Source: an uncultured Acidimicrobiaceae bacterium (GTDB lineage Bacteria; Actinomycetota; Acidimicrobiia; Spongiisociales; UBA5794). From it: a stretch of DNA of 64,000 bases. Location: the NCBI GenBank assembly GCA_964579415.1, contig CAZOGW010000002.1:14612-78611 (forward strand), in the 5' to 3' direction. The position numbers and the translations under genes were made by a program. The notes under the pieces were generated by a model. It was not told the origin of the DNA. It made no database searches and saw only the letters and a program-made list of their open reading frames with translations. How positions within the stretch are numbered: position 1 is the stretch's first letter; every line of letters starts with the position of its first letter. This document shows positions 11,181 to 54,526 of the stretch, in pieces.

Positions 11181-11188
11181 CGGCAGGC

Positions 11189-32514: not shown

Positions 32515-32519
32515 CCCAC

Positions 32520-33707: not shown

Positions 33708-33709
33708 GG

Positions 33710-37663: not shown

Positions 37664-38599
37664 ATGATGCGGTGCCCGGTATGTGGCCGGTTGACCCGCT
37701 CGCGGAGCTATCCCTTCCTCAACGTGGGCCGGCACCGGCATCCGACCTTCGACGGCCGGCACCTGTCGGCCTGCTCCCGGTGCGACTCGATGTGGTGCAC
37801 CGACGCGCCCACCAACGGCGAGCTGGGCGACTACTACGCCACCAGCTACGTCCCGGCGAGAATGGGCGAGGCCGACAAGGACACCTGGCCCATCTGGGAT
37901 ACCCGGGCGTACTCGCAGATCATGCTGGCTCGCCTCTTCGTCGACTGGGCACCGGGAGACCTGTTCGTCGACGTGGGCCCGGGCAACGGTGCCGCCCTCT
38001 CCGTGGCGCCGCTGCTGCTGCGGGACGCCCACCTCGGATGTGTCGAGTTCAATCCCCACGCCATCGAGTTCTTCCGCCGCCACGTTCCCGACATCACGGT
38101 CACCGAGTCGATCGAGGAGTTCGCCCCGGGTTCGGCCAAGATGGTCTACAGCGCCCACAGCCTCGAGCACTACCGCCCCGGCGACGCCTTCGACGGTCTG
38201 CGCGGCATCGCCCGGGCCCTGGCGCCGGGCGGTGTCCTGGCGCTGGAGGTGCCGTGGGCCCCATCGGCCCGTACCATCGCCGCCGGACGCCACACCCCCC
38301 ATCTGTTGTTCTTCTCGCCCCAGGGCCTGCAGCGCCTGCTCACACGTGCCGGTTTCGAGGTGGTGTTGTGGTTCACCTCGCGGGGACGGCGCGGCAACCG
38401 TGACGCGGTGGCGGACCACCCGGTTCCCCCGGACCTCGGTCGTGGCCTCGCCGCCCGCCTCTCCACCTTTGTCACCGGCGACCTGATGGCCTCGGTCCCC
38501 CGCGACGGCCAGCCCATCAAAGGTGTCATCAAGGTCGTGGCCGTCAACGGCGGGCGCCGCCTGATCGGCGGTCAGGCAGATGCCAGCAGGATGCGGTAG
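37664..38599 (+). CDS. Class I SAM-dependent methyltransferase with an N-terminal Cys4 zinc-ribbon
   Basis: CPVCG...CSRCDSMWC zinc ribbon; motif I LFVDVGPGNGAAL; post-II GGVLALEVP. Its 3' end overlaps the convergent ADH gene by 28 nt. Confidence 0.7.
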   Translation: MMRCPVCGRLTRSRSYPFLNVGRHRHPTFDGRHLSACSRCDSMWCTDAPTNGELGDYYATSYVPARMGEADKDTWPIWDTRAYSQIMLARLFVDWAPGDLFVDVGPGNGAALSVAPLLLRDAHLGCVEFNPHAIEFFRRHVPDITVTESIEEFAPGSAKMVYSAHSLEHYRPGDAFDGLRGIARALAPGGVLALEVPWAPSARTIAAGRHTPHLLFFSPQGLQRLLTRAGFEVVLWFTSRGRRGNRDAVADHPVPPDLGRGLAARLSTFVTGDLMASVPRDGQPIKGVIKVVAVNGGRRLIGGQADASRMR

Positions 38600-39726
38600 A
38601 GGGCATCGTCCCCGTAGCGGACAGGGTTGTTGCCGAGGCGCTCGACGTTGACCGACTCCGCCAGCCTGCGCAGGCCGGGCTCGTCGCCGATACCCACCTC
38701 TCCCAGCGACGCCGGAAGGTCGATCTCCCGCAGCAGGGCGTTGAATCGTTCCCGGGCGGTGCCTTCCGCAGCGGCTCCAAGCCGGGACCTGATCTCCTCC
38801 ATCACGGAGAGGTGGGTGGCCCGATCGACGGTGGCCTGGAGATCGGCGGGGTCGGCAGCGGAGTGGGCGTCGATGAAGGCGCCCAGCGTCAGTGCCACCG
38901 CGCTGCCATGGTTGACGCCGTAGCCCTTGGTGATGGCGTACGACAGGGCGTGGGCCGCCGTGGTCCTCGACACGTCGATGGCCTTGCCGGCGAGGTGGCT
39001 GCCGATGCTCATGGCGCGCGCCGAGTCGATGTCGGGTCGGTTAACAAAGGTCTCGATGGCGGGGAGGAGCAGGTCGAGGGCACGCCGGGCGCGGCGGCGG
39101 CTCCACGGCGAAGCGGCCGCCGCCCACAGGCTCTCGACCGCCTGGCACACTGCGTCGATGCCGGAGGTGGCCCGCTGGTGCGCCGAGCCGCTCATGGCGA
39201 GCCGGGGGTCGAGGACGATGTGGTCGGCGTACATCCCCGGCCCGGCGATGGAGAACTTCTCCTCACCGGAGTAGACGACGGCGAAGTGGGTGGCCTCGCT
39301 CCCCGAGCCGCTCGTGGTCGGCACCAGCACCAGCGAGCGGTCGCGGGAGGCGATCGTGCCACCTTCCCGGATGGTCGCTTCGAGCCGGTGCGTCGCCGTG
39401 GATCCGTAACCACACAGCAGCTTGGCCATGTCCATGGCGCTGCCTCCGCCGACACCCAGCACCAGGTCCGGCTCCCACTCGGCGGCCAGGGCCAGCCCCA
39501 CTGCCAGGTCGGCGGCGTCGGTGTTGGGGGCGAAGTCGCTCCAGCGGTGCACCTCGGCGACCGCCTCCAGCCCGGGCAACATGGCGGCGGCGCCGCTGGC
39601 CTCGAACGAGCGTCGCCCGCACACCAGCATGATCCGCCGTGCCTGCAGCGCCCGGGCGATCCCGGGAACATCGCCGGCGGCGCCGTCGCCGTAACTGGTT
39701 GGCACCTTGCGGGCCGGTTCCTTCAC
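38572..39726 (-). CDS. Iron-containing (group III) alcohol dehydrogenase; predicted phosphonoacetaldehyde reductase (PhpC/FomC-like)
   Basis: Fe-ADH family motifs (GGGSAMDMAK, GxxHxxxH-type metal region AHALSYAITKGYGVNHG). Translationally coupled (ATGA-type overlap) to the phosphonopyruvate decarboxylase gene. Confidence 0.7.
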   Translation of the reverse strand: MKEPARKVPTSYGDGAAGDVPGIARALQARRIMLVCGRRSFEASGAAAMLPGLEAVAEVHRWSDFAPNTDAADLAVGLALAAEWEPDLVLGVGGGSAMDMAKLLCGYGSTATHRLEATIREGGTIASRDRSLVLVPTTSGSGSEATHFAVVYSGEEKFSIAGPGMYADHIVLDPRLAMSGSAHQRATSGIDAVCQAVESLWAAAASPWSRRRARRALDLLLPAIETFVNRPDIDSARAMSIGSHLAGKAIDVSRTTAAHALSYAITKGYGVNHGSAVALTLGAFIDAHSAADPADLQATVDRATHLSVMEEIRSRLGAAAEGTARERFNALLREIDLPASLGEVGIGDEPGLRRLAESVNVERLGNNPVRYGDDALYRILLASA

Positions 39727-40859
39727 GGCGCCGGCTCGGCGAGCGCCTTCATGAAGGCTGCCTTGGAGTCGGCGGGTGAGCGGGTGGGGCGGCCCAGGTC
39801 GGAACGATGCCCGGGGCGGACCACCAGTTCCAGGAGGCTCGGCCCGCCACCGCGGCGCATCTCCGCCACGTTGCGTTCCAGGTCCGTCACCCCGGTCAGC
39901 GACCGCGCCCAGCGGTACCCGGCGGCGATGCCGAGCGCGGGCACGTCCACGACGTCGATCGACGTCGGCTGGCCGCCGACGCTGTCATGGACCCCGTTGT
40001 TGAACACGACGTGGAAGTAGTTGGCCGGGGCGTGATCTGCGATGACGGCGAGGCTGCCCATGTGCATGAGCAGCGCACCATCGCCGTCGAGGCACCACAC
40101 CTCGCGGTCCGGTTCGTCGAGGGCGACGCCGAGGGCGATCGAGGAGGCGTGGCCCATGCCGCCGACGGTGAGGAAGTCGAGAGCGCGGTCCTCCCCGGCG
40201 CCGCTGCGCAGCTCGAACAGCTCCCGGCTCAGCATCCCGGTGGTGGACACGATGACGGCATCGTCGCCCAACAACCCGACCAGAGCGCCCAGCGCCTCCT
40301 CCCGGGTGGGTACCGCGGCGTCGGGCGACGGGTCGACGGGCACGACCGGTGCGAAGGTCCCCTTCTCCACCAGGAGGACGAAGGGCCCGCTGCGCTCCTC
40401 GGCGAGCCGGACCGCTTCGGCCACGACCTGGGCCGCATCCTCCGGCTCCCGGGGCAGCACCGACCACGGCAGGTCCATGCCGTCCAGCATCGACGTCATG
40501 ACCCGTCCCTGCTTGACGTGCTGCGGCTCGTCCTTGACGCCGGGCTGGCCCCGCCAGCCGATCACCAGGAGCATGGGGACGCCGTAGACGTCGGGGTCGG
40601 CCAGCGACAGCAGCGGGTTCACCGTGTTCCCGGTCCCCGAGTTCTGCAGGTAGACGGCGGCAGGGCGGCCGGTGCGCAGGTAGTGGCCGATGGCGATGCC
40701 GACCGAGCCGCCCTCGTTGGCGGCGATGACGTGTCGCGAGCGGGGTAGCTCCGCCATGACGTGCCGCCCCAGTTCCTTGAGCAGGCTGTCGGGCACCCCG
40801 GTGAAGAACGTGATCCCCTGCGCTTCGAGCCAGGCGACGAAGTCCTCCGCTCGGATCAT
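39723..40859 (-). CDS. ppd: Phosphonopyruvate decarboxylase (TPP-dependent)
   Basis: 378 aa with a TPP pyrimidine-binding N-domain and a C-domain carrying the GDG(X)n NN-like motif ([17 protein letters not shown]...FNNG). Start [12 protein letters not shown] at 40859 overlaps the ppm stop by 4 nt. The annotated upstream extension to 41825 is a shadow frame. Confidence 0.8.
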
Positions 40860-42166
40860 GTGGCGTTCTCCGGGACGATGGTGAGCACCTCGGAGATGGG
40901 GGCGATCATCTGGTCGGCTTCGAGGGAGCGGCCGTGGGTGAGAACGCTCTCGGCGACGCGTCGCATCTGCGGGTAGGCGGCACGGAGCATGTGGTTGGCG
41001 TAGATCACGATGCGCACGCCGGCATCGGCCAGCTCGGCCTCGGTGACCTGGTTGTACGACGTGGGCACGGCGACGATGGGGACCTGCTTGGCGAACTTGG
41101 CGGCATGGGCGCAGAACTCGAACACCTCTTCGGGATCCCTGCGCCGGCTGTGGATCATGATCCCGTCGGCGCCGGCATCGACGTAGGCTTCGGCCCGCTC
41201 GACGGCGTCGTCGACTCCCTTGTCGAGGATCAGGCTCTCGATACGGGCGATCACCATGAAGTCGGAGGTGATCTGCGACTGCTTGCCGATGGCGATGCGG
41301 CCGCAGAAGTCCTCGATGGAGGACTGGGTCTGGGTGACGTCGGTACCGAAGAGCGAGTTGCGCTTGAGGCCTTCCTTGTCCTCGATGATCACCGCCGACA
41401 CTCCGAGGCGCTCCAGGGAGCGCACCGTGAAGGCGAAGTGCTCCGGCTTGCCGCCGGTGTCGCCGTCGAAGATGAGGGGCTTGGTGGTGACCTCGAACAA
41501 TTCGTTCACCATCTGCAGCCGGGAGCTGATGTCCACCGCCTCGATGTCGGGTTTGCCCCGGGAGGTGGAATCGGTCAGCGAGCTGGACCACATCCCGTCG
41601 AATTCGACGGTCCTCCCGTCGCGCTCCACCTGGGCGTTCTCGACGATGAGCCCGGACAGCCCGCTGTGGGCCTCCATGATGCGCACCACCGGCTTGTTGG
41701 CCAGCAGGCGCCCCAGGCGCGCCAGGCGGACGTTGGGTGTGGTCCCCACCTGTTTGATGGCGGCGTTGAGCTGGGTCGAGGAGATGCCCTCCGTGTAGGG
41801 GACCTCCACCAACTCCCCTCCCCACTCCGCCAGGGCGTCGATGACCCGCTGGCGGGTGTCCCGCTGCACGCCGCTGCGCCAGTCGTCTCCGTGCACCACG
41901 AAGTCGGGGCGGAGGCGCTGCAGGTTGGGGACGTAGTCCAGAGTCTCCTGGGCCACCACCACGGTCACGCCCTTGAGGTTCTCCACCACCGCCCGGCGCT
42001 GCTCGTAGGTCATGTGCGGCAGCCGCTTGTAGCCGGAGATGGCCCGGTCGGTGAGCAGGCCGACGGTGACGTCGCCGATCTCGGCGGCGCGTCGGAGGAT
42101 GTTGATGTGGCCGGGGTGGATGAGGTCGGCGCTCATGCCCACGTACACGCTGGGGCGGGTTGACAT
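40856..42166 (-). CDS. ppm: Bifunctional phosphonate cytidylyltransferase (PntC-like HxGH nucleotidyltransferase) fused to phosphoenolpyruvate phosphomutase (Ppm)
   Basis: N-terminal approximately 140 aa: [15 protein letters not shown] (HxGH) plus an RISSTQ-like region [10 protein letters not shown], i.e. the GlpT/TagD-type cytidylyltransferase fold. C-terminal PEP mutase: [16 protein letters not shown]...VIIEDK...IARIES. Start at ATG 42166 ([10 protein letters not shown]); the 746-aa annotated ORF upstream of this is a shadow frame. Confidence 0.85.
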
Positions 42167-42195
42167 GTCGGGTGCTCCGTTTCGGGGTTGGGTAT

Positions 42196-44964
42196 TCAGG
42201 TGATCTCGAACGGGGAGGGGATCGGGTAGAGGGAATCGAGGAGCGAACGAACCACCGCCGCCTGGCGGGCGTGGTCGATGTCGGTGTGGAGGGTGGCGTT
42301 GAGGCAGAAGTACGTCGGCCGCCGCGACACGATGTCGTGGACTCGCCGCGCCATGTCGGCCCGACCGGTGTCGAGATACACGTAGGCGCCGGACGGCTGC
42401 GGCCACTCCACCGCGGCGCCGGTGGCGACGCCGTAGAAGTGGGCGAACATGCTGGGGATGGCCAGGTCGGTGGCCGACCTGAACCGGGCGGCCCTGGTGC
42501 GGGTGTACTCCTCCGGGTAGCGGCGTTCCATCTCCTCCAGCACGGAGCGGCGCAGGGCGTGGGGGATGTGCTGGACCTTGCGGTCGAAGCGGATGCCGAA
42601 GTCCCGGGCGATGATGTCGGAGGCGTTGTAGGCGGCCCAGTCGGTGGGGATCGCGTCGGGACCCGGTCGCCCCTCGTAGATGTACTGGGTGGGGGCGAAC
42701 CGCACCTTGCTCAACCCGGCACGGGTGAAGAAGTCGTCGACGGTCACCTCCCGGCCCAGGAACACGTCGTCGTTGAAGTAGAGGAAGTGCTCTGCGACGC
42801 CGGGTACCCGGTGCAGGTTGGCCTCGATGGCCTGCGAGTTGAAGGTGGGCAGCACCGACGGGTCGGGGAAGACGTCCCGGTGGGATACCACCGAGATGCG
42901 CTCGTCGGAGGTGTCCAGCCAGGCCGGCACCTGGTCGGCGGTCACCAGGTGGATGTGGCGGACGAACGGGGCGTACATCCACACCGACCGCAGCGAGTAG
43001 CGCAGCTCGTCGCGGTCGATGAAACGCTCGGCGTTGTCGGCGCTGGTGAGCGAGGTTCCACCCGCACCGCTGTGGGCGGCATGGGCGCGGCGCCATTCCG
43101 GGTCGGCCGGGTCGACCCAGGTGTAGACGACGTCGACCTCGCCGACGGTGTGGTGGCGGCCGACGGAGCTCACCGGCCGGGTCGGGGGCGGTGCCCCCTC
43201 CAGCAGCTCGGGGAACTCTGCCGTCCAGTCGACTCGGGCGGCGCGTGGCTCCACTGTGATGACCCGCTGCTTGGCGGGAACCGGCGCCACGAACATCACC
43301 CCGAGGCCCTGCACGCGGGCGGCGCCCTGCGGGAGACCGCCCGGGGCCGGCCCGACGGCGATCGATCGGGCCGGGAAGAGGTCCTCGAAGGTGACGGTGC
43401 CCATACCGACCATGCGGGACCTGCGGTCGCCCCCCGCCAGGTGAACCACCAGCCCCGGGTAGTCCCGGCCCACCGCCACCAACACGTCACCGAGCATGCG
43501 CTTGTCCCGCTCGGCCACGGCGCACAGCGGCCTGCCGTCGACCTCGGCGACGGCAAAGGCGAGCCCGGCCTCTTTGGCCGCCGTGGCGAGGACGGCGGCC
43601 AGCGCACGGCGTTGCCGGTCCGGGGTGGCGCCGAGGGCCTTCACCACGGGAGGCACGGCGGGCGGCCTCGGAGAGGCGGCGCCGTCCGCCGCGGTGCCGG
43701 CTGCGGGCGTGCCGTCCGCCAGCTCGTCGACCTCCCGCTTGCGGGCCACCTGCAGGATGTCGTGCCACGTCTTGAGCAGCCGCGCCTCGATGCGGGGGTA
43801 GCGAGTCATGGTAAGGCGGGCGCGCTGCTTGGCGCGAAGGGTGACGTCGCCGATGCCTTTGGGCCGGCCGGCACGGAGGCGGCTGTTCTGCCGGGAGAGG
43901 TGGCGATTCTCCGTCTCGAGGCGGCGGTTGCGCCCCATCAGCTCCCTGGTGCGTGCCCGCACCTGCCAGCGGGCGAAGTCGTAGGGTTCGCCGTTGTCGA
44001 TCAGATCGACGATGGCGTCGGCGCACGCTCTCCCTGCCGTCCCGTGGTTGACGAAGAAGCGGTCGACGAAGCCGCGGTAGGCGGCGTCATCGGCGAGCCG
44101 GCTGCGGGCCTCGGCGACGGCATCGTCGAGGGGGCGGCCCGACTCCCACACCACGCCGAGGCCGGCCAGGTGGGAACGGTCGATGTCGGCGGCGGAGAGC
44201 CGGTGGTAGTCCTCCGCCTCGGGATCGGCGTCGCCCACCAGGACCAGCGGCCGCCGGGCGTAGAGGGCATCGAAGGCGGCGCCGGAGAAGTCGGTGATGA
44301 CGAAGTCGGCGGCGCCGATCAGTTCGGCGGGCGAACGGTCGGCGCCGACCAGGCTGCAGTTGGGGGGAAGGATTCCGGCGGCGCGGGGGTCTTCGGCGTG
44401 GTGGAGTTTCACGCTGATCTCGACGGGGAGGCCGGAGAGGCGGCGGCCCACCGCCTCCAGCGAGGACAGCGACCCGTAGGTGGGCAGGTAGAGGCCCTTC
44501 GCCGATCCGCCCTGTGGCGCAGGCGGCAGTCCCCCGGCGAGAAGCTCGTCGAACAGGGGGTTGCCCACGGCCCGGGCGTGGGCGAACCCGGCAACCCGGT
44601 CCACCGAGTACGGCCCGTACATGAGATTGGCGTTGGCCAGGGAGCGCCACACGCCGTACTGGTAGGTCTCCTTGCCCAGGCTGTACTGCTGCGCAACCAC
44701 CAGCGACCGCTCCAGGAGGGCGTTGGGGAGGACCGGCGTCTGGCACACGATCACATCGAAACGGCCGTCGAGGGTCCGCAGATGCTGCTTGGGGACCCAT
44801 TCCACGGTGGCGGCGGGCAGGTGTGCCCGGATGAAGGCCTCATCGACCTCGAAGTCACGGTCGCGCGTCTCAATGACGAACGTCGACGCCCCCAGCGCGG
44901 CCGCGATGGGTCGGTAATGGTGGACCTGATACCGGTTGGTGATGAGGAATGCGATACGTGTCAT
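42196..44964 (-). CDS. Fusion of a TagF-like glycerophosphotransferase-family domain, a coiled-coil linker, and a C-terminal Stealth (CR1-CR4) hexose-1-phosphotransferase domain
   Basis: TagF-like: [13 protein letters not shown]...[14 protein letters not shown]. Stealth CR1-CR4: [46 protein letters not shown]...[32 protein letters not shown]. Confidence 0.8.
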
Positions 44965-45075
44965 CGTCCGCTGCGCGAGTCGAACCGGCGGCCAGACCAG
45001 GGGGATCCACCGGGGGAAACCCCGAGTTTACCTCAGCGTCATTTCCAAGGCATCATCATGCGGCGTCCGCTCACG

Positions 45076-46785
45076 TCAACGCTCCCAGGGCGACGCCACC
45101 GGGAAGTACTCGCCGAGGAAAGCTCCGAGCCGGGCCGCCGCCGCGGGCGGATCGGTCTCCCATCGTTCGGTGGCGTTGATGCACACGACGTCGAGGTCCC
45201 GGCCCAGCGAAACCCGGCGCAGGAAGGTGCCGAGGCGGCGGCTCCCCAGGTTCTGGTAGGCGATGCGCAGCTCGCCGGGCACGGCGCGCCCCGTGCTGAA
45301 TGCGTAGTGGTGGGCAAAGGCCGAGGCCACCGACAGGTCGTCGCTGCTGCGGAAGCGGTGGCGCGCCGTGGCCTCCATGGCCTCGGGGAAGCGCTCCTCG
45401 ATCTCGAAGAGGACGCTGCGCAGCAGCGGGTACGGGGCATGGTGCAGCTTGCGTCCCACCACCGAGCCGAACTCGCCCTCGATGAGTCGGCGCCCGGTGC
45501 GTGCCGCCGCGTCGGCGGCGAGCGCCTCGCCTGCGCCCCCGGCGGGAAGTGGGATGCGGGCCTCGCTCTCGAAGAACCGGCTCAGGCCGTTGGCGGTGAA
45601 GAAGGCCTCGGGGGTGAGCGGGCGACCCAGCAGCATGTCGTCGTTGAAGTACACGAAGTGCTCGGCGAGCCCCTCGATGTGGTGGAGCCGGGCCTCGATG
45701 GCGTGCGAGTTGAACGTGGGCAGCCAGTCGCCGGGGAAGATGTCGCGATGTGACACCACGGTGAGCCCGTCGTCGGGCGCCAGCCAGGCGGGGACCTGGT
45801 CGGCGGTGACCAGGTAGATGTGGCGCACCCACCCGGCGTTGAGCCACAGCGACCTCAACGAGTAGCGCAGCTCGTCGAAGGAGGCGAACCGGGAAGGATC
45901 CACGGCGTCGGCGGCGCGTGCGCTCCCCTGGGCCGGGGACCAGCGGTCGAACCGGTCCCGCCAGGTGGGATCGGAGCTGTCGACCCAGGTGTAGACCACG
46001 TCGATCGGGTCGCGGAACTGCAGCAGGCCGCGCCCCACCGGGAATGCCGTCAGGCCCGGGTAGTCGTTCCCCGCCACCGACTCGGTGGTGGGCTCGGCGG
46101 ACCGCTCGAAGCGGTTGAGGCCGCGGTGGCCGAGTCGCTCCATCCGGTCACCCGAAGCCGTCCAGAAGCTGATCAGGATTCCGTCGTCCGGGCCCACCAC
46201 CGCGTCGGGACCGATGCTCAGGCAGCGAAAGAGCACCCAGGACTCGGCGCGCCGGGCACGGCGGCGGGTGCCCCGCGCCCGCAGCAGCCCGGTGTGGTGG
46301 CGACCGCCCCGCCGCCACCGGAGGTACCAGGCCTCGGTGGGATCGGCCCCGCTCAGGGCGCCCAGGGCGGCAGCGCGGTCGCCGGCAGGGAGCCCGAAGT
46401 GGAGTCGGCCGCCGTCGGTGTCGACGAGGAAGGGATGCAGGCCGGCCCGCTCCAGGCGGGGCAGCAACGATCCTGCGAACCCGTGGGGCAACTCGGACCG
46501 GGGTCGGTCGATGGTGCCGGTTGCCACCCAGCGCCGCCACTCGCCGGTGGCGGCAACGGTGCGACCACGCCATGCCCGCGGCCCGCCGTTAGGTGGCAGC
46601 AGGCGGGCCGTCACCCGCTGCAGCGCGGCCCTCAGCTCGAGCCGCCACCTCTCGCCCAGCAGTCCCACCACCGGCTCGGGGAAGCGCCCGTCGAGGCGGC
46701 GCAACGCCAGCGCCCGGCGCAGCCGGCCGGCGACGGTGCGGAGCCGTGCGGTGAAGACGCCGGCTCCCTCACTCTTGGGAGTCAT
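45076..46785 (-). CDS. Stealth-family hexose-1-phosphotransferase (second paralog, no TagF domain)
   Basis: [46 protein letters not shown]...PTFNSHAIEARLHHIEGLAEHFVYFNDDMLLG. Confidence 0.8.
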   Translation of the reverse strand: MTPKSEGAGVFTARLRTVAGRLRRALALRRLDGRFPEPVVGLLGERWRLELRAALQRVTARLLPPNGGPRAWRGRTVAATGEWRRWVATGTIDRPRSELPHGFAGSLLPRLERAGLHPFLVDTDGGRLHFGLPAGDRAAALGALSGADPTEAWYLRWRRGGRHHTGLLRARGTRRRARRAESWVLFRCLSIGPDAVVGPDDGILISFWTASGDRMERLGHRGLNRFERSAEPTTESVAGNDYPGLTAFPVGRGLLQFRDPIDVVYTWVDSSDPTWRDRFDRWSPAQGSARAADAVDPSRFASFDELRYSLRSLWLNAGWVRHIYLVTADQVPAWLAPDDGLTVVSHRDIFPGDWLPTFNSHAIEARLHHIEGLAEHFVYFNDDMLLGRPLTPEAFFTANGLSRFFESEARIPLPAGGAGEALAADAAARTGRRLIEGEFGSVVGRKLHHAPYPLLRSVLFEIEERFPEAMEATARHRFRSSDDLSVASAFAHHYAFSTGRAVPGELRIAYQNLGSRRLGTFLRRVSLGRDLDVVCINATERWETDPPAAAARLGAFLGEYFPVASPWER

Positions 46786-47539
46786 ACGCTGCGAGCACCT
46801 CGTCCACCGTCCCGTCGAGATGGATCTTCCCCTGCTCGAGCCACATGGCGCGGCTGCACGTGGCCCGAATCTCGTTCATGTTGTGCGTCACCATGACGAT
46901 GGAGCCGGCGTTGGCCTGCAGGTCCCGGATCCGAGCCATGCTCTTGCGTTTGAAGGTACGGTCACCCACCGCCAGCGCCTCGTCGATGAACAGCAGCTCG
47001 GGTTGCTGCAGCGTGGCGATGGCGAACGCCAGCCGCGCCCTCATCCCCGACGAGTAGGTGCGCAGCGGCCGCCTCAGGGCCTCGCCCAGCTCGGTGAAAT
47101 CGGCGACTTCCTCGATGCTCTCGCGGATCTCGCTCATCGGCATTCCCATGGCGAGGCAGCCGATTGTGATGTTGCGGTAGCCGGACAGCTCCGGCTTGAG
47201 GGCTGCCCGCACCGTGAGCAGCACCGGCTCGGAGCGGACCAGGACCGACCCCGATGTCGGTTGCAACAGGCCGGCGAGGGCACGCAGCAGCGTGCTCTTG
47301 CCCGACCCGTTGGAGCCGACGATGCCGACCACCTCGCCGACGTCGATCTGGAACGTCACTCCCTTGACCGCGTGCACCTCGTCGGAGACGCGGCTGCGGA
47401 AGCCCCCGCTCATCATCCGGCGCAGGGTGAACGATTGCTCCTCGTAGACCTTGAACCGCACGTGGATGTCGTCCGCCACGATGGCCGGTGTCCCGGTGGC
47501 GATGCTCCGCTCGGTGACGACGGCGCGCTCAACTGCCAT
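46769..47539 (-). CDS. ABC transporter ATP-binding protein of the polysaccharide/teichoic-acid exporter type (TagH/KpsT/Wzt-like, no C-terminal carbohydrate-binding extension)
   Basis: Walker A GIVGSNGSGKST, signature YSSGMRARLAFA, Walker B LLFIDEA, and the H-loop. Overlaps the permease gene by 11 nt. Confidence 0.85.
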   Translation of the reverse strand: MAVERAVVTERSIATGTPAIVADDIHVRFKVYEEQSFTLRRMMSGGFRSRVSDEVHAVKGVTFQIDVGEVVGIVGSNGSGKSTLLRALAGLLQPTSGSVLVRSEPVLLTVRAALKPELSGYRNITIGCLAMGMPMSEIRESIEEVADFTELGEALRRPLRTYSSGMRARLAFAIATLQQPELLFIDEALAVGDRTFKRKSMARIRDLQANAGSIVMVTHNMNEIRATCSRAMWLEQGKIHLDGTVDEVLAAYDSQE

Positions 47540-48371
47540 ATCTGGCCTCCCCCCGGCGGAACCAGATGATGCCCCCCAGGCCCAGCACCAGCGTCCACAG
47601 CACCGCGGCGGCGGCTTCGACCCAGAGGACCTCCATTCCCAGCACCGCCCAGCGGTACAGCGCCAGGTAGTCGAACACAGGGTTGGCGATGAACAGCCAC
47701 CGCAGCGACTCGTGCTCGAGGTAGGCGTAGACGTAGAAGATCACACCCGAGCCGTAGAAGAGCAGCCGGAACAGGAACGGCAACAGGTTCTCGATGTCCC
47801 GGTAGGCATGGTTGGCCCGAGCCGCGATCAGGGCGCAGCCGGTGTTGAATACCACCTGGAAGGCGATGAGCGGGATCAACACCAGCCAGGTGAGGCGTAC
47901 CGGCTCGTCGGTGAGCACGGCGACGGCGAGGAACACCAGGACGCCGGGCAGGAACGCCATCGCCTCGGTGACGACGGCCGTTATCGGGACCATGGCGCGA
48001 GGGAAGCTGATCGACCGCATCAACCCCTGGTTCTGGATCAGGCTCTTCGCCCCTGCCATGGTGCTCTTCTGTGTGAAGCGGAAGACGAACACACCGACCG
48101 CCAGGAAAGCGATGAAGTTGTCCACGCCGCGGGTGACCTCGAGGAGCACGCCGAAGACCAGGTAGTAGACGGCGACGCCGAGGATGGGGTTGAGCAGGTG
48201 CCACAGATTGCCCAGCACCGTGTTCATGTTCTGGGAGCGCAGCTCGTTGCGCGGCACATGGAACATGTACTCCCGGCAGGCCCACAGGCGTTGGAGGTAC
48301 GCTCTCCAAGACGAGTAGGTGCCAGGAGGATGGAGCTGACTCGACGCAGCCCGCGTCGTCATGACTGACAC
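47529..48371 (-). CDS. ABC-2-type exporter permease (TagG/KpsM/Wzm-like)
   Basis: Six TM helices. The N-terminal ELRSQNMNTVLGNLWHLLNPI is typical of Wzm/TagG. Confidence 0.8.
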   Translation of the reverse strand: MSVMTTRAASSQLHPPGTYSSWRAYLQRLWACREYMFHVPRNELRSQNMNTVLGNLWHLLNPILGVAVYYLVFGVLLEVTRGVDNFIAFLAVGVFVFRFTQKSTMAGAKSLIQNQGLMRSISFPRAMVPITAVVTEAMAFLPGVLVFLAVAVLTDEPVRLTWLVLIPLIAFQVVFNTGCALIAARANHAYRDIENLLPFLFRLLFYGSGVIFYVYAYLEHESLRWLFIANPVFDYLALYRWAVLGMEVLWVEAAAAVLWTLVLGLGGIIWFRRGEARYGS

Positions 48372-48633
48372 GCGAACAGCTTAGCGAGAGCCGATCTGTA
48401 GCCCTGATCTCCTGCGGGGAGGTGGCTGGGACGGTGGAGGTCTCTGTGGGTATCGGGCGGTGGACATCCGGCGTGTCGCCGGGGCCGTGGGCGGTACACC
48501 GCCCGCCCCCCAGGGCCCGAGGGACACGACCATGATCGTAGTGAAGGGAGATCGGAGGAGATGGTGACGGCATACGGTTGCCCGGTCCGCGGTCGCATCC
48601 ACCACGGACGAGCTATGCACCCGTGGGCGTGAC

Positions 48634-49929
48634 ATGAGGCTCCTGGCGATTGCCCTTTCGGTGCTGGTGGCGCTGACAGGGCTCGGCGGCTCCGTCGCGT
48701 CCGCCGCACAGGGGGACGACGAGCGTCGGCGCATCGGATATCTGGCGGGTGACGAGGGGAAGGATTGGCACCTGAAGCACTTCCCGGTGCCGCACCGCAA
48801 GGTGGTCGGCTCGGAGTCGTACTACCTCACCTTCGACGACGCCCAGACCGAGAACACGGTCGCGCTTCTCGATGGGCTGAAGGCATGGCCGGACGTCAAG
48901 ATCACGTTCTTCGTCAACTGCTACGAGATGAGCCCCGGCGTCTACCAGCGCATCCTCGACGAGGGCCATGCGATCGGGAATCACACCTGCAACCACGTCC
49001 CTCTCACCGAGCTCGGCAAGCAGGGACGCACCGAACAGTTCGACAAGCTGCGTCGCTTCGTGATGGCGCGTGTGGATCCCGACAAGGCCATTGGCTGTTA
49101 TCGGCCCCCGTTCGGGCTCACCAGCGACTCGGTGCGCGATCACGCCTGGAACTCGCTGGATCTTTACGAATGGGGATGGAACGTCAATACCGAGGACTAC
49201 GAGTACCCCGGGACCGCAGCCATCCAGCATGACCTCGACACCATGCGCGCCGGCGATATCGCTCTCATGCACACGTCGAGAGGCAAGTCGGCGACGGTGC
49301 AGGCGACGTTGAGCCACCTGGCCCGGTATGCCGGGATGCGGTCGTACGAGGTCCTTCCCGGGTGCGCCACGTATGCGCCGCCTCTCTGCCAGGGCAGGCC
49401 TGCCACCATCGTGGGGACGCCGAAAGGGGACCGGATCAAAGGCACGTCCGGCGACGATGTGATCTGGGCCGGTCCCGGCGACGACGTCGTCCATGCCCTG
49501 GCCGGTGATGACATCGTCTGCGGCGGCGGGGGTTCCGACGTCATCCACGGCGGGCCCGGAGACGACGTGCTGTCGGGGGAGAAGGGGAAGGACGTTCTGC
49601 GGGGCGGTCCCGGTAGCGACCTGTTGGATGGTGACACCGGCGCCGACCGGCTCTACGGAGGAAGGGGCAGCGACACGCTGCGCGGCCGTACCGGCTCCGA
49701 CCGGCTCTGGGGCGGTCCCGGAGCGGACCACCTGTACGGCGGCAAGGGAGCCGACCACCTGCGCGGCAACGCCGGCGACGACCGGCTGGTGGGAGGACCC
49801 GGAAGCGACCACCTCCGCGGCGGCAAGGGAGCCGACATATTGCGCGGTGGCGCAGGCACCGACATCTGTATCGGTGGACCGGGAGCGGATGCCGGACATC
49901 TCTGCGAGACGACGGTATCCATCCTCTGA
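48634..49929 (+). CDS. Secreted CE4 (NodB-homology) polysaccharide deacetylase fused to a C-terminal RTX beta-roll
   Basis: Signal peptide MRLLAIALSVLVALTGLGGSVASA; CE4 motifs TFDDA and GNHTCNH; N-cap CQGRPATIVGTPKGD; about 18 GGxGxD repeats; terminal CIGGPGADAGHLCETTVSIL. Confidence 0.8.
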   Translation: MRLLAIALSVLVALTGLGGSVASAAQGDDERRRIGYLAGDEGKDWHLKHFPVPHRKVVGSESYYLTFDDAQTENTVALLDGLKAWPDVKITFFVNCYEMSPGVYQRILDEGHAIGNHTCNHVPLTELGKQGRTEQFDKLRRFVMARVDPDKAIGCYRPPFGLTSDSVRDHAWNSLDLYEWGWNVNTEDYEYPGTAAIQHDLDTMRAGDIALMHTSRGKSATVQATLSHLARYAGMRSYEVLPGCATYAPPLCQGRPATIVGTPKGDRIKGTSGDDVIWAGPGDDVVHALAGDDIVCGGGGSDVIHGGPGDDVLSGEKGKDVLRGGPGSDLLDGDTGADRLYGGRGSDTLRGRTGSDRLWGGPGADHLYGGKGADHLRGNAGDDRLVGGPGSDHLRGGKGADILRGGAGTDICIGGPGADAGHLCETTVSIL

Positions 49930-50067: not shown

Positions 50068-51270
50068 CTAGAGCATCGCCACCTCGGGGTGGCGACCGTC
50101 GGCCACCCTGTGGAGGCCTTCGAGATAGTCGGCTCCCGGGTTCCAGGTGTGCTCGCCGTTGCGGACCTGGACATAGTTGAAGCGGTCGGCTGCAAACGAC
50201 AGGTGGCCGGCGCGTTCGCAGCGGCGGATGAAGAGGCGGTCCTCGCCGAGGGTGCGGTCGGGGAACCGGATCGAGCCGGTGCGGTGGCGGTCGATAACCA
50301 GGGTTCCCCCGGCGAGGTAAGACGTGTATTCGAACTCACGGCCGGGGAAGCGCACCGCGGTGACGTCCTCGGCGGCGACGGTCACGAAATGGCTGTGTTT
50401 GCCCACGACGGCGGCGTCGGCGTACGAATGCGCCAGCAGGAGGTCGGAGAGAAAGTGTTCCCCGTACTCGTCGTCGTCGTCGAACTTGGCCATGTAGCGG
50501 GTTCCCACCCGCTCCAGGGCGACGTTGAGGCAGGCGCCCAGCGTGAGGCTCTCGTCGGTCTCCACCACCGCGGCACCGGGGACAGCGCCGAGGCGGTCCC
50601 GCACCGCGGCGATGTCGAAGCCGGACGAGTTGGTCACCACCAGGAGTGCCTGGGCGCTGTCACCCTGCTTGGCGTAGTTGGCGATCAGATGCTCGAGCCG
50701 GTGAGGGCGGTTGGTGACACAGACCACGGTGCAGCCGCCGGCGGCTGTGTGTTCCCGTCCCACCCGGCCCAGGGCAGCCGCCAGCTCATGGCGGCTGGTG
50801 TACCCCAGAGCCGTCCGGTAGGGGCCATGGGCCGCCGCGGTCGCCGCCAGCCACCGATCCACCTCCGCCCCGCCGGCGGAGCGGGAGAGGACAGGTACGC
50901 CGCGGCGTGCTGCAGCGGCGGCCAGGGAGCGCCACTCCTCAGGGAGGCCGGCGGAATGGTGCAGCGGCCGGGTCGGGTCAGCCTGCGCCGCCGCTACGAA
51001 AGGCCGCCCCGACCAGGCGACGACGCCGCTCCCCTCCGATACGGCGGCCTCCGCCCCGGGACCGGCGAGGATGACTTCGGGCCTGGCGGTGGTGGCGACG
51101 ATCCGCGCCTCGCCCTCGAACAGGGCGGCGAACCACGCCGGGCCGATCACAGCCAGGCGTGGGGCGTGGCGGCGGCGGGAGGCCCGGCGCATCGCCGTCG
51201 AGAGGCGAGCCCAGCCGCGCAGCACCCGGTTGGCGGAGCCTCGCAGGAACCTACCGGCGGCGCCGCTCAC
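50068..51270 (-). CDS. Putative glycosyltransferase (GT-A-like C-terminal domain) with an N-terminal domain of unknown function
   Basis: TVVCVTNRPHRLEHLIANYAKQ...VTNSSGFD...MAKFDDDDEY, a GT2-like DxD arrangement. Weaker than the other calls. Confidence 0.45.
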   Translation of the reverse strand: MSGAAGRFLRGSANRVLRGWARLSTAMRRASRRRHAPRLAVIGPAWFAALFEGEARIVATTARPEVILAGPGAEAAVSEGSGVVAWSGRPFVAAAQADPTRPLHHSAGLPEEWRSLAAAAARRGVPVLSRSAGGAEVDRWLAATAAAHGPYRTALGYTSRHELAAALGRVGREHTAAGGCTVVCVTNRPHRLEHLIANYAKQGDSAQALLVVTNSSGFDIAAVRDRLGAVPGAAVVETDESLTLGACLNVALERVGTRYMAKFDDDDEYGEHFLSDLLLAHSYADAAVVGKHSHFVTVAAEDVTAVRFPGREFEYTSYLAGGTLVIDRHRTGSIRFPDRTLGEDRLFIRRCERAGHLSFAADRFNYVQVRNGEHTWNPGADYLEGLHRVADGRHPEVAML

Positions 51271-51307: not shown

Positions 51308-52600
51308 TCACTTGGCTCCGAACCCCGAGACCATCGTCCACACCGATCGCCCCAGGATCTCCAGATCGAGCCATGGCGACATGTGCTTGACGTAGTACAG
51401 GTCGTAGGTGAGCTTGTCGAAGGTCTGCGCCTCGTCGTCGGCGTACCCGTAGTTCACCTGGGCCCAACCGGTGAGGCCGGGGCGAACCACGTGGCGGTAC
51501 CCGTAGAAGGGTATGGAACGCTCGAACTGCTCGGTGAACACCGGGCGCTCCGGGCGGGGTCCCACCAGACTGACGTCGCCGCGCAGCACATTCCACAGTT
51601 GCGGGACCTCGTCGAGGCGGGTGCGGCGCAGCCAGCGGCCCGACCGGGTGAACCGGACATCGTCGGACCGGGCGAACTGCGGACCGTCGGTCTCGGCGTC
51701 GACCACCATGCTGCGGAACTTGTAGAGCGTGAAGGGACGGCCGTTCCATCCCACCCGCTCCTGGCGGTAGATGACGCCGCGGCCGGCATCGAGGAGCACC
51801 GTCACCGCGATGACGGCGCCGAGCACCAGCCACAGCGGCAGCGTCACCAGGATGAGAGCGGTGTCGCCGGCGCGCTTGAAGCCGGCGTAGCGGTTGCGGT
51901 CGAGCGGGGCGGAGAGCTCCCAGCCCTCATCGAGGTGCACCAGAGGGAAGCGGCCGGTGTGCTGCTCGTAGATCGTCGACAGCGGCACCACGGAGCGCCC
52001 GGCGAGGTGCCAGGAGAACACGAACTTGGCCATCTCCTCCGACAGCACCGGGCGCAGGTCGAGGACGAGGAGCAGGCCGTCGTCGAGACCGTTGTCCGGG
52101 GCGGCCCCGGCAGGGTCGTGGACGGCGACCACGTCGGCGTGGCCCGAGGTACGCAGGTCGTCCACCAACCCCTTCTCGTAGGTGATGACGATCATCCGCT
52201 CCGACCACGGCATCCGGCGCCGGACCCCGCGGTGGATCAGCGCCCCGGCCAGCCACACGGCGATGGTGCCGGCGAACACCGCGTTGGAGTAGTAGGGCCG
52301 ACCCACGGCGACACCGAGGGCGGTGACCATCACCATGATCCCGGCGATGGCGAAGGCGCGCCCGTAGGACGGCCGGGGCGTCGCGGTCCCCCGCGCACGG
52401 AAGGTGACGAAGGTACCGATGAGCAACCCGGCGGTGAGCAGGCCGGCGAAGGGCCACACGGTGGCTCCGGCCGCCGCGCCGCGCAGCTCCACCCTCCAGG
52501 GGAGGGGGGAACCGAGGACCACCCACGCCGAGAACGCGAAAGCCAGTCCGAGAATGGCCAGGTCGCCGGCGAGAACGGAGAGAACGAACCGCCTACGCAT
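51308..52600 (-). CDS. Polyprenyl-phosphate glycosyl-1-phosphate transferase (WbaP/CpsE-like 'bacterial sugar transferase'); candidate priming enzyme
   Basis: Four N-terminal TM helices. C-terminal catalytic domain VIYRQERVGWNGRPFTLYKFRSM...LDEVPQLWNVLRGDVSLVGPRP. Start at ATG 52600; the upstream annotated extension to 52981 is a shadow frame. Confidence 0.8.
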   Translation of the reverse strand: MRRRFVLSVLAGDLAILGLAFAFSAWVVLGSPLPWRVELRGAAAGATVWPFAGLLTAGLLIGTFVTFRARGTATPRPSYGRAFAIAGIMVMVTALGVAVGRPYYSNAVFAGTIAVWLAGALIHRGVRRRMPWSERMIVITYEKGLVDDLRTSGHADVVAVHDPAGAAPDNGLDDGLLLVLDLRPVLSEEMAKFVFSWHLAGRSVVPLSTIYEQHTGRFPLVHLDEGWELSAPLDRNRYAGFKRAGDTALILVTLPLWLVLGAVIAVTVLLDAGRGVIYRQERVGWNGRPFTLYKFRSMVVDAETDGPQFARSDDVRFTRSGRWLRRTRLDEVPQLWNVLRGDVSLVGPRPERPVFTEQFERSIPFYGYRHVVRPGLTGWAQVNYGYADDEAQTFDKLTYDLYYVKHMSPWLDLEILGRSVWTMVSGFGAK

Positions 52601-52653
52601 CCTCACGATTCTACCGGGGGCTGCGCGAAGCCCGAGCTTTGTGCAACGCGGGG

Positions 52654-52716
52654 AGGTACTTGGTACTTGGTACTTGGTAAGGCACGGATACCAAGTACCA
52701 AGTACCAAGTACCTCC
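52654..52716. repeat. Perfect palindrome: (GTACTTG)x3-containing 27-bp stem, 9-nt loop (aggcacgga), then reverse-complement arm
   Basis: Read directly: gaggtacttggtacttggtacttggta-aggcacgga-taccaagtaccaagtaccaagtacctc. It lies between the rmlD stop (52758, minus) and the PGT start (52600, minus). Confidence 0.9.
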
Positions 52717-52757
52717 GCGCGACAAGACAAGATTGCTGGACCTCAAACACCCCTGGC

Positions 52758-53594
52758 TCAACCTCGGGCGATCTGCGACGCCACCACTTCGGGGAGGGAG
52801 TCCTTCCAGTGGGGGAGGTCGGGGAGGCCCAGCGGGGCGCGGCGCTCCGAGGCGAGGACGGAGTAGGCGGGGCGGGGAGCGGGACGGGGGAACTCCTCTG
52901 TGGCGCAGGGGACCACCAGGGTCGGGTCGAGGCCGGCCAACCGGACCGACTCGGCGGCGAGCCCGTGCCAGGTGGTGACACCTTGGTTGGTCAGGTGCAG
53001 GATCCCGGAGACGCCGGCGTCCAGCGCCGCCAGGGTGGTGGCGGCGAGGTCGTCGGCGACGGTGGGGCACCCGTGCTGGTCGTCGACAACCCGCAGCCCG
53101 CCCGATCGCGCCAAGCGGAGCATGGTGGCGACGAAGTTGGGGTGGGTTCCTGAGATCACCCACGAGCTGCGCACCACCAGTGCCCCCGGGTGTGCCGCCA
53201 GGGCACGCCGCTCCCCATCCCGCTTGGTGCGGCCGTAAGCGTTCAGCGGCGCGGTGACGTCGCCCTCGACGTAGGGCCCACCCTTGGTGCCGTCGAACAC
53301 GTAGTCGGTGGAGAAGGTGACCAGCGGAATGCCGAGGCGGGCGCACACCTGTGCCATCTCCTCGACGGCCTCGGCGTTGACCAGGTGGGCGGTCTCCTCG
53401 TCGGTCTCGGCGGCGTCCACCGCGGTGTAGGCGGCGCAGTTGATCACGGCCTCGGCGCCGGAGTCCTCCACCCAGGGACCGATGGCGGCCGTGTCGACGA
53501 GATCGAGCTCGGAACGGTTGGGGAAGCGGGCCCCGGGGAGCAGGCCCCGAAAGGCGGTGCCGAGCTGGCCGCTGCCCCCGGTGACGACGATCAA
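52758..53594 (-). CDS. rmlD: dTDP-4-dehydrorhamnose reductase
   Basis: [12 protein letters not shown]...YxxxK (YGRTK) short-chain reductase of the RmlD type. A 4-nt overlap with rmlA. Confidence 0.85.
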
Positions 53595-54466
53595 AGCCCC
53601 TCCCGCTCCTCGGCGACGATCTCCTCGAGGTAGGCGCGGTAGGCCGACCCGGGCATGGCGTCCACCAACTCGCCCAGATCGTCGAGGCTCACATAGCCGC
53701 AGCGGAAGGCGATCTCCTCCAGGCAGGCGATCTTGCTGCCCTGCCGGTGCTCGACGGTGGCGATGAAGTTGGCGGCGTCGAGGAGGCTGTCATGGGTACC
53801 GCTGTCGAGCCAGGCGATGCCGCGGCCGAGGCGCTGCACCCGCAGGGCTCCACGTTCCAGGTAGTGCCGGTTGAGGTCGGTGATCTCCAGTTCCCCGCGG
53901 CCCGACGGCTCCAGGCTGCGGGTCGTCTCCACCACTTCGGCGTCGTAGAGGTACAGGCCGGGGACGGCGTAGCGGGATCGGGGCTGGCGGGGTTTCTCCT
54001 CGAGCGATATGGCCCGCCCCTCGGCGTCGAACTCGACGACTCCGTAGCGCTCGGGGTCCCGCACCGGGTAGGCGAAGACCAGCGCCCCGCTGGTGAAGGT
54101 GCGCGCCGCCTCGGCGAGCCCCATGGTGCCGTAGAAGATGTTGTCCCCGAGGATGAGGGTGACCGGCTCCCCGCCGATGAAGTCGGCGCCGATGAGGAAC
54201 GCCTCGGCGATGCCGGCGGGCCGGTCCTGGGTGGCGTACGAGAAGGTGACGCCCCACTGCGACCCGTCGCCCAGCAGCGATCGGAACCGCGCCTGGTCGA
54301 CCGGTGTCGTGATCATGAGGATGTCGGTGATCCCGGCCAGCATCAGCGTCGACAGCGGGTAGTAGATCATCGGCTTGTCGTACACCGGCTGGAGTTGCTT
54401 GGAGGCGACCCGCGTCATCGGGTCGAGCCGGCTCCCGGCGCCTCCGGCGAGGACGATGCCCTTCAT
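53591..54466 (-). CDS. rmlA: Glucose-1-phosphate thymidylyltransferase
   Basis: [18 protein letters not shown]...[17 protein letters not shown]...ILGDNIFYG. Confidence 0.9.
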
Positions 54467-54526
54467 CGCCGAACCGTCCCTTCAAGTTGCGATCCCATGT
54501 GCGGGTCCTCCCGGAGCGCGATGCGG

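Follow-up and report, generated by a model that had tools for sequence, protein, structure and literature searches.

We examined a glycopolymer locus in a 64,000-nucleotide stretch of the genome of an uncultured Acidimicrobiaceae bacterium (contig CAZOGW010000002.1; this whole stretch is called the window), in which a 922-aa protein carries a TagF-like domain fused to a Stealth domain. The gene for this fusion lies in a predicted seven-gene, 9.8-kb minus-strand operon running from 48371 to 38572, and this operon very probably builds and exports a surface glycopolymer bearing 2-hydroxyethylphosphonate (HEP), that is, an HEP-phosphonoglycan. The complete statement, in which cytidine monophosphate-activated HEP (CMP-HEP) is also the donor used by the TagF-like domain, we regard as evenly balanced. 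The original prediction, made from the sequence, had covered four of the seven genes and had proposed a mixed sugar-1-phosphate and polyol-phosphate polymer.

Operon layout and the phosphonate module

The G+C content of the window is about 70%, and long spurious open reading frames (ORFs) are common at this composition; therefore, coding potential was assessed by third-position GC content (GC3). GC3 was 0.85-0.91 in all four minus-strand ORFs between 42196 and 48371 (permease, ATPase, Stealth and fusion), and this strong bias, together with the ORF positions, confirmed the four genes first described. They had been said to run without gaps, which is true of the first three, with overlaps of 11 bp (permease/ATPase) and 17 bp (ATPase/Stealth), whereas 111 bp separate the stop codon of the 569-aa Stealth gene from the ATG of the fusion gene. 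Near this gap, a sigma-70-like match (45079-45052) agreed at 9/12 positions and was not significant (1 site versus 0.6 expected). The operon had also been thought to end at 42196, but three phosphonate-biosynthesis genes carry it on to 38572. The first of them, encoding a cytidylyltransferase-PEP (phosphoenolpyruvate) mutase fusion, begins 29 bp after the fusion stop codon; the phosphonopyruvate decarboxylase (Ppd) gene overlaps it by 4 bp, and the gene for an Fe-dependent alcohol dehydrogenase (Fe-ADH) overlaps the Ppd gene by another 4 bp. Because the genes overlap or have 29-111 bp between them, and 38300-48800 contains no terminator-like site, we predict a single operon, of which the four genes first described form the upstream two-thirds (Table 1).

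The PEP mutase (PepM) domain matched TIGR02320 at 415 bits (cut-off 319.55) and Ppd matched TIGR03297 at 436 bits (cut-off 312.5), while the best NCBIfam match of the Fe-ADH was the phosphonate-associated Fe-ADH family TIGR03405, below its cut-off. An Fe-ADH following Ppd marks the HEP branch of phosphonate biosynthesis (Li and Horsman, PMC8942020), and the locus has the combination expected of an HEP-phosphonoglycan cluster of the Glycomyces/Stackebrandtia type: PEP mutase, Ppd and Fe-ADH alongside glycan-assembly genes. The Fe-ADH is thus predicted to be a phosphonoacetaldehyde reductase producing 2-HEP. The cytidylyltransferase domain (PF01467, E 4e-12) matched the structure of the Fom1 cytidylyltransferase (5x3d) with an E-value of 1.5e-67 and about 79% identity over 137 aa by our own count. 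Fom1 converts HEP and CTP to CMP-HEP (Rice et al. 2019, PMC6697681), and by strong homology the last three operon genes are predicted to supply CMP-HEP. The original prediction had mentioned a phosphonate backbone in parentheses, as a side option; since the cytidylyltransferase directly downstream is highly similar to the CMP-HEP domain of Fom1, that option is now the main lead.

This module resembles both the fosfomycin pathway (Fom1/Fom2/FomC) and the PntC/LicD-type logic (Rice et al. 2019). A cytidylyltransferase-PepM fusion, Ppd and Fe-ADH would give CMP-HEP, and cytidylyl activation would be followed by transfer onto a cell-surface acceptor. Unlike the fosfomycin pathway, the locus has no tailoring enzyme of the Fom3/Fom4 type, indicating that CMP-HEP is not en route to fosfomycin here. 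The PntC/LicD-type logic employs a LicD-like transferase, whereas the transferase proposed here is TagF-like, or works alongside a LicD-like enzyme.

For the exporter genes, the permease had no Pfam match, and its NCBIfam match was galactan_ABC_perm, Wzm/RfbD (E 2e-18), below the equivalog cut-off. The best NCBIfam matches of the ATPase were Wzt/RfbE (186 bits) and TagH (173-184 bits), and permease orthologues adjoin an ATPase orthologue in three related loci (L002, L003 and L005). Since the NCBIfam scores all fell below equivalog cut-offs, we assign the exporter to its class only (Wzm/Wzt, TagGH-type). At that level the ABC exporter proposed earlier holds, its two genes overlapping within a glycan cluster.

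Table 1. Features of the window discussed in the text, with positions counted from its first nucleotide
Feature	Size	Position	Strand	Basis or remark
ABC-2 type permease (Wzm/TagG-like)	280 aa	47529..48371	-	first operon gene; GC3 0.89
ABC ATPase (Wzt/TagH/KpsT class)	256 aa	46769..47539	-	PF00005 E 2e-24
Stand-alone Stealth protein	569 aa	45076..46785	-	Stealth domain at aa 260-569; Stealth CR1-3 above Pfam cut-offs
Intergenic gap 5' of fusion gene	111 bp	44965..45075	-	sequence read directly
Fusion protein	922 aa	42196..44964	-	N-terminal TagF-like GT-B and C-terminal Stealth
Fusion, divergent TagF-like GT-B domain	aa 1-325	43990..44964	-	profile, fold and paralogue evidence
Fusion, Arg-rich helical linker, possible short coiled coil	aa 330-416	43717..43977	-	AlphaFold2 model
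Fusion, alpha/beta middle domain	aa 439-570	43255..43650	-	AlphaFold2 model; no Pfam match
Fusion, predicted Stealth hexose-1-phosphate transferase domain	aa 605-922	42196..43152	-	CR1-4 above cut-offs
Cytidylyltransferase (PF01467)-PEP mutase fusion	436 aa	40856..42166	-	TIGR02320 and PF01467
Phosphonopyruvate decarboxylase (Ppd)	378 aa	39723..40859	-	TIGR03297; TPP_enzyme_N and TPP_enzyme_C
Fe-dependent alcohol dehydrogenase (Fe-ADH)	384 aa	38572..39726	-	Fe-ADH and ADH_Fe_C domains; last operon gene
TPR and LicD-family protein	714 aa	11189..13333	-	TPR; LicD 24.7 bits, cut-off 22.6; ~29 kb away
GT2 glycosyltransferase		50068..51270	-	Pfam; orthologues in L003, L005
Bac_transf phosphoglycosyl transferase		51308..52981	-	Pfam; orthologues in L003, L005
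rmlA/C/D		52758-55165		just upstream of operon
Fusion of two O-methyltransferase domains (CmcI/rhamnosyl O-methyltransferase and TylF)	670 aa	55179-57191	+	next to rmlA/C/D
Second TagF-like subfamily member, N-terminal TagF-like domain and TPR repeats	1067 aa	29467-32514	+	passes PF04464
CMP-sugar synthetase (CTP_transf_3 and HAD)		32379-33707	+	directly after 1067-aa gene
NeuB-family nonulosonate synthase		33452-34582	+	follows CMP-sugar synthetase
RTX-repeat protein (calcium-binding nonapeptide)		9730-11154	+	
RTX-repeat protein		21124-23733	-	
RTX-repeat protein		48634-49929	+	
RTX-repeat protein		58728-60371	+	
Sulfatase/phosphodiesterase-fold protein, possibly LtaS/EptA-like		15837-18122	-	
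Sulfotransferase-like protein		27598-29250	-	real gene by GC3 frame plot
Methyltransferase and GT2 protein	1294 aa	23598-27482	+	
GT2 and Glyco_trans_1_2 protein	1022 aa	17956-21024	-	
Large protein with SpoIID domain		57211-58986	-	paralogue of next
Large protein with SpoIID domain		60856-63039	-	paralogue of previous

Architecture and domains of the fusion protein

A frameshift or mis-fusion artefact was ruled out as the origin of the 922-aa protein. Its 922 codons form an open frame with a GC3 of 0.91 throughout, and the architecture is common to 31 full-length orthologues of 875-966 aa (counted without an identical database copy of the protein), which are 40-60% identical to it and nearly all span the whole query. 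The fusion is therefore genuine, as originally described. Its orthologues occur in Stackebrandtia albiflava, Stackebrandtia sp., Natronosporangium sp. and Glycomyces albus, to which a genome scan added Ilumatobacteraceae metagenome-assembled genomes (MAGs). The best matches come from Ilumatobacter-type Acidimicrobiia (58% for the best among GTDB representatives), and identity to the Glycomycetales orthologues is 42-46%. In two ENA metagenome contigs (L001 10001-12602 and L002 923-3562), gene prediction breaks the orthologous gene into two or three parts, for example a 509-aa N-domain then a 261-aa Stealth piece, and pieces of 309, 327 and 84 aa. These breaks most likely reflect frameshifts introduced by assembly and not natural splits, and the PepM and Ppd genes adjoining the broken fusions are also fragmented. 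Databases name the orthologues 'Stealth-like' or 'hypothetical', and our literature searches found no paper on a TagF-like/Stealth fusion nor on a phosphonate transferase of the TagF type or a phosphonate-linked glycerophosphotransferase. In the capsule-polymerase literature, Stealth enzymes and TagF-like enzymes are kept apart as two classes (PMC5974469). Hence, the fusion appears to be uncharacterised, in agreement with the original prediction. The full-length AlphaFold2 model (mean predicted local distance difference test score, pLDDT, 86) comprises four modules: a GT-B domain, a helical stretch, a middle domain and the Stealth domain.

In the C-terminal part, the four conserved regions of Stealth proteins were found in order at aa 610-921, all above the Pfam cut-off (CR1 36.7, CR2 151.5 with E 1e-44, CR3 67.6 and CR4 36.0 bits). 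The 569-aa protein, which is 45% identical to this domain, exceeded the cut-offs for CR1-3 and fell marginally below for CR4 (27.0 versus 27.4 bits). Thus, both Stealth assignments made earlier hold by Pfam; neither protein had an NCBIfam match. Orthologues of the 569-aa protein, with its 259-aa N-terminal region included, are present in L003 and L005. The closest solved structures of the fusion Stealth domain were Mycobacterium tuberculosis CpsY (8j2n; E 5e-60, TM-score 0.92) and GNPTAB. In GNPTAB, UDP-sugar and Mg are bound by S385, E389, D407, D408, H956, H959, R986 and N1151 (PMC9388126). Alignment to 7s6n and 8j2n, combined with the invariant columns of the orthologues, showed that the counterparts S710, E714, D732, D733, H799, H802, R829 and N889 are kept in the fusion and invariant in 31/31 aligned orthologues. 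From these conserved catalytic residues, both Stealth domains are predicted to transfer hexose-1-phosphate.

The four conserved regions and the catalytic and Mg/UDP-binding residues are shared with Neisseria meningitidis CsaB/CsxA, M. tuberculosis CpsY and human GNPTAB, whereas three features differ. Bacterial Stealth polymerases have been described as single-domain proteins (PMC5974469), and here three other parts precede the domain, namely a TagF-like domain, a helical linker and a middle domain. In CR4, the tetrapeptide CLND/CIND, described as 'almost universally conserved' (Sperisen 2005), is replaced: the fusion reads CLNAT, the 569-aa protein CINAT, and all 31 fusion orthologues CLN[A/T/V/S/C]T, so that the Mg-binding Asn is retained and only the Asp is gone. 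Finally, the alignment showed no conserved Gln opposite Gln992 of GNPTAB, the residue that contacts N-acetylglucosamine (GlcNAc).

The N-terminal part (N-domain) had been called TagF-like, and this assignment stood in a qualified form. The Pfam profile for such enzymes, PF04464 (Glyphos_transf), scored below its cut-off of 22.1 bits, with 16.4 bits for the full protein and 18.2 bits for aa 1-400, and its alignment covered aa 205-304 only (profile positions 254-350). Profile, fold and paralogue evidence nevertheless places the domain near TagF, and five independent lines support its membership of a divergent TagF-like subfamily. A first profile, built from the 13 closest homologues of the domain, gave one meaningful match among solved structures, the TagF-like capsule polymerase Cps3D (8qoy, E 5e-5), with the motifs YxPT(Y/W), (K/G)HH and ITD(F/Y)S(G/S)xxxD in register between the two. 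The homologue P0013 (32% identity) matched Cps3D with E 2e-8 and also TarL, and a PDB phmmer search with the single N-domain sequence returned only CalG2 (E 0.04). TagF was the top Foldseek match of the N-domain model (pLDDT 87, predicted template modelling score 0.88), whose GT-B fold is closest to TagF-type enzymes. When the extended family was compared by hhalign with three canonical Glyphos_transf proteins from related loci, the probability was 97.9% (E 2.8e-12, 304 columns). An exhaustive profile search of 1.84 billion representatives yielded 197 subfamily proteins at E <= 1e-30; PF04464 (E <= 1e-3) was matched by 40 of 52 long ones. A paralogue in the window, 32% identical over the whole N-domain (E 6e-40), passed PF04464 at 29.2 bits.

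Ten residues of the N-domain (P161, T162, G164, K186, H188, H189, D225, S227, G228 and D232) are invariant in 31/31 orthologues, as are H16, Y94 and S95. With H444 and H584 of Staphylococcus epidermidis TagF taken as the catalytic histidines, the second is present as H188/H189, aligned with 'GHH' of Cps3D and with 'RKHS'/'RPHP' of canonical members. Because invariant residues occur in both halves of all 31 orthologues, the N-domain and the Stealth domain both look catalytically active. The fusion has several features in common with the TagF/TarL wall-teichoic-acid polymerases and the TagF-like capsule polymerases Cps1B, Cps3D, Cps7D and Bcs3 (Litschko 2018, Cifuente 2023): the donor-side motifs, the second catalytic histidine, a multi-domain polymerase architecture and an ABC-transporter context. 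In place of a GT-A/GT-B glycosyltransferase or a phosphatase, its partner domain is Stealth. Among the 52 long subfamily representatives, Stealth was the fusion partner in 14 and PF05159 Capsule_synth (KpsC/KpsS-like) in 33. The KpsC/KpsS family comprises CMP-Kdo-dependent transferases. An Epimerase_2 match was seen in ten of the 52. Some relatives encode the N-domain and its helical tail on their own, as a protein of about 400 aa, and in L003 a Stealth gene lies near the gene for it; this occurrence in both split and fused form argues for a functional link between the two modules.

The original prediction had placed a coiled coil between the two catalytic modules. An Arg-rich helical segment of about 85 residues is indeed found there, and also in stand-alone N-domain homologues. 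However, its three helices (aa 330-366, 372-388 and 390-416) were modelled with low pLDDT (53-76), and of the Leu/Met heptad positions L342, L349, L356 and L363 only L349 is conserved among orthologues. A coiled coil is thus plausible only as a short dimerisation helix, and the idea of a 'dimeric ruler' rests on a short, poorly conserved helical segment. The middle domain was modelled with pLDDT 85-96 in most 10-residue blocks, with dips to 71 (around aa 511-520) and 51 (around aa 541-550). Homology of this domain to the N-terminus of the 569-aa Stealth protein was considered and not adopted (hhalign probability 31%; nothing by BLAST).

A helical, possibly coiled-coil, segment between catalytic modules recalls the chain terminator WbdD of Escherichia coli O9a, which combines a kinase, a methyltransferase and a coiled-coil ruler. 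The fusion could accordingly be a WbdD-like terminator or length regulator instead of a polymerase, capping the non-reducing end of an ABC-exported glycan with HEP and/or hexose-1-phosphate, the helical segment serving as spacer or ruler; the ABC-transporter-dependent pathway and several methyltransferases encoded nearby are consistent with such a role. We consider it improbable and less likely than the polyol-phosphate alternative discussed below, since the 256-aa ATPase lacks the C-terminal carbohydrate-binding (cap-binding) domain typical of terminator-dependent Wzt, the helices are at most 37 residues each with the low pLDDT and poorly conserved heptads described above, and two Stealth domains plus a TagF-like domain exceed the needs of capping.

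Genomic associations and the proposed donor of the TagF-like domain

Twelve loci carrying the fusion were inspected (the window, L001, L002, L004-L006 and L020-L025). In 11 of them (the window, L001, L002, L004, L006 and L020-L025), the cytidylyltransferase-PepM, Ppd and Fe-ADH module, or part of it at a locus edge, lies within 10 kb of the fusion gene, usually directly adjacent. Stand-alone N-domain homologues adjoin the module in L003 and L007, and, with fused and stand-alone forms taken together, the N-domain accompanies the PepM module in 13/14 loci.

The system had been presented as differing from classical routes. However, the same gene set occurs in two genera with 2-HEP exopolysaccharides: an orthologous fusion adjoins the HEP core in Glycomyces albus (L020) and Stackebrandtia albiflava (L006), and 2-HEP is a proven exopolysaccharide constituent in Glycomyces sp. 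and Stackebrandtia nassauensis (Yu et al. 2014, J Bacteriol 196:1768, as cited in PMC8942020 and PMC13576164). These clusters share with the window the cytidylyltransferase-PepM, Ppd and Fe-ADH core and the adjoining fusion orthologue. In the two genera, the product as so cited is an exopolysaccharide in which 2-HEP was shown chemically. The clusters differ in gene order, the ABC exporter and a second Stealth gene sharing the operon here. Our literature searches found no function assigned to the fusion gene, and three papers citing Yu et al. 2014 (PMC8942020, PMC13576164, PMC12723261) are silent on such a gene. The cluster kind is therefore already known, and the new part is an uncharacterised variant enzyme.

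In the best-supported pathway, PEP mutase, Ppd and Fe-ADH would convert PEP via phosphonopyruvate and phosphonoacetaldehyde to HEP, the first two enzymes showing equivalog-level homology, and the Fom1-like domain would turn HEP into CMP-HEP. Judging from its fold, motifs and gene context, the TagF-like GT-B domain may then transfer the hydroxyethylphosphonyl group from CMP-HEP onto a glycan hydroxyl with release of CMP. This chemistry would match that of TagF on CDP-glycerol, of which CMP-HEP is a close analogue with P-C replacing P-O-C. Hexose-1-phosphate from UDP-hexose would be added by both Stealth units, the fused domain and the 569-aa protein. The Bac_transf phosphoglycosyl transferase, the GT2 enzyme and rmlACD, encoded just upstream, probably supply a lipid-linked primer, and the finished lipid-linked polymer would be exported by the Wzm/Wzt-type transporter, as its homology suggests. 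The covalent fusion suggests that phosphonyl and hexose-1-phosphate transfer follow one another on a shared acceptor; in a relative (L003), these two modules are encoded by separate neighbouring genes.

A more specific form of this pathway makes the fusion a bifunctional polymerase. The TagF-like domain would add HEP to a sugar hydroxyl and the Stealth domain would add hexose-1-phosphate to the free 2-hydroxyl of HEP, the alternation yielding a 'phosphono-teichoic acid', that is, a teichoic-acid-like backbone with C-P-bonded phosphonate instead of glycerol phosphate. We regard this form as decidedly unlikely. In a weaker form, if true, the N-domain would be the first identified CMP-phosphonate:glycan phosphonyltransferase, of the TagF class.

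Several observations weigh against CMP-HEP as the putative donor of the N-domain. The fusion locus L005 (Ilumatobacter sp. MAG, REDU01000138) has no PepM, Ppd or ADH gene within 10 kb on either side, the sole such case among the 12. Its gene order (3336-12676: permease, ATPase, TPR-LicD, Stealth, GT2, fusion) resembles that of the window. Moreover, distant proteobacterial N-domain homologues (26-36% identity) are not near PepM; most are directly preceded by a small cytidylyltransferase whose best match is TagD, a glycerol-3-phosphate cytidylyltransferase. These TagD-linked proteins, the nearest relatives with clear genomic context, probably use CDP-glycerol. With TagD beside some members and cytidylyltransferase-PepM beside others, the subfamily travels with whichever enzyme makes the CMP-linked donor, an association that speaks for CMP-HEP in this locus.

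The TagD pairing fits the main alternative, in which the TagF-like domain is a CDP-glycerol/CDP-ribitol polyol-phosphate transferase that makes a mixed teichoic-acid-like polymer with Stealth, the CDP-polyol being made elsewhere and HEP being handled by a protein with TPR and LicD domains (TPR-LicD). The PF04464 matches across the long subfamily members agree with it, as do canonical Glyphos_transf, IspD-like and CDP-OH_P_transf genes near the Glycomycetales loci L021 and L025 and the recurrence of TPR-LicD homologues in related clusters. An HEP-glycerol ester has reportedly been obtained from the exopolysaccharide, which would imply glycerol in the polymer. Polyol-phosphate donors, the substrates first proposed, nevertheless have no genetic basis here: no gene of the TagD, TarI or IspD type for CDP-glycerol or CDP-ribitol synthesis was found in the window, where the only enzymes for CMP-linked donors are the Fom1-like domain and a CMP-nonulosonate synthetase, and the sole PF01467 cytidylyltransferase is the Fom1-like one, of HEP-specific type. 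The tracking of the PepM module by the N-domain argues in the same direction, and we judge a polyol-phosphate transferase unlikely, though worth keeping in mind.

The TPR-LicD protein also bears directly on HEP transfer. It is encoded in the window, and seven related loci have a homologue in the neighbourhood of the fusion gene: L003, L005, L006, L020, L022, L024 and L025. LicD-like enzymes are the class suggested for CMP-phosphonate transfer (Rice et al. 2019, PMC6697681). This protein could be the HEP transferase instead of, or beside, the TagF-like domain and is a serious rival; the two might also both use CMP-HEP, at different sites.

The remaining difficulties concern the N-domain itself. 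By fold alone, UDP-GlcNAc 2-epimerases score nearly level with TagF. Furthermore, no counterpart could be detected for the first of the TagF catalytic histidines (WHG motif); hhalign puts a gap there, beside the invariant Y94/S95, and aligns the N-terminal half at near-zero confidence. In the N-domain, the acceptor-side half diverges strongly, which, with the undetectable WHG motif, sets the fusion apart from the TagF/TarL class, as does an adjacent donor-making enzyme predicted to yield CMP-HEP, not a CDP-polyol. H16 is a candidate for an alternative base. The epimerase scores and the undetectable first histidine, together with the sub-threshold PF04464 score and the GT1 glycosyltransferases (CalG2) that appear near TagF in fold searches, would fit an N-domain that is no phosphotransferase but a GT-B sugar transferase, an epimerase-like module or a non-catalytic scaffold, leaving only Stealth active. 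However, the donor-side motifs PTxG, KxHH and DxSGxxxD are invariant in all 31 orthologues and align with Cps3D and TarL, the hhalign comparison with canonical Glyphos_transf is strong, and the family is linked to cytidylyltransferases across phyla. A non-phosphotransferase N-domain is thus very improbable and less likely than the polyol-phosphate alternative.

The surrounding island and significance of the locus

Most of the window forms a single glycopolymer island, which exceeds 50 kb. The GT2 and Bac_transf enzymes are probable contributors to primer synthesis for the exported glycan, and the double O-methyltransferase protein next to rmlA/C/D fits O-methylated sugars in the glycan. The second TagF-like subfamily member is followed by genes for a CMP-sugar synthetase and a NeuB-family synthase; thus, with cytidylyltransferase-PepM beside one and CTP_transf_3 beside the other, each TagF-like paralogue in the window adjoins an enzyme making a CMP-activated donor. 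NeuB and CTP_transf_3 genes also adjoin the PepM module in L023. Of the four RTX-repeat proteins, two are paralogous and combine a polysaccharide deacetylase with RTX, and one combines an M15 peptidase, FG-GAP and RTX; RTX-rich proteins are unusual for a high-GC Gram-positive-type genome. Sulfatase-fold, sulfotransferase-like, further glycosyltransferase and SpoIID-domain proteins are listed in Table 1.

Cell-surface decoration is the presumed role of about half of all phosphonate gene clusters in bacteria. What follows phosphonate activation, especially the transferase that moves a CMP-phosphonate onto a glycan, has been called enigmatic (Rice et al. 2019, PMC6697681). The locus described here offers a concrete, testable candidate for phosphonate attachment, a TagF-like domain that occurs almost always with a CMP-HEP module and is fused to Stealth. 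Stackebrandtia and Glycomyces are cultivable carriers of orthologues, which makes experiments practical. If confirmed, the activity would provide a tool for the enzymatic synthesis of phosphatase-resistant, phosphonate-bearing glycans. It would also link the Stealth and TagF-like phosphodiester-polymerase classes within one enzyme, and TagF-type chemistry would reach from CDP-polyols to CMP-phosphonates.

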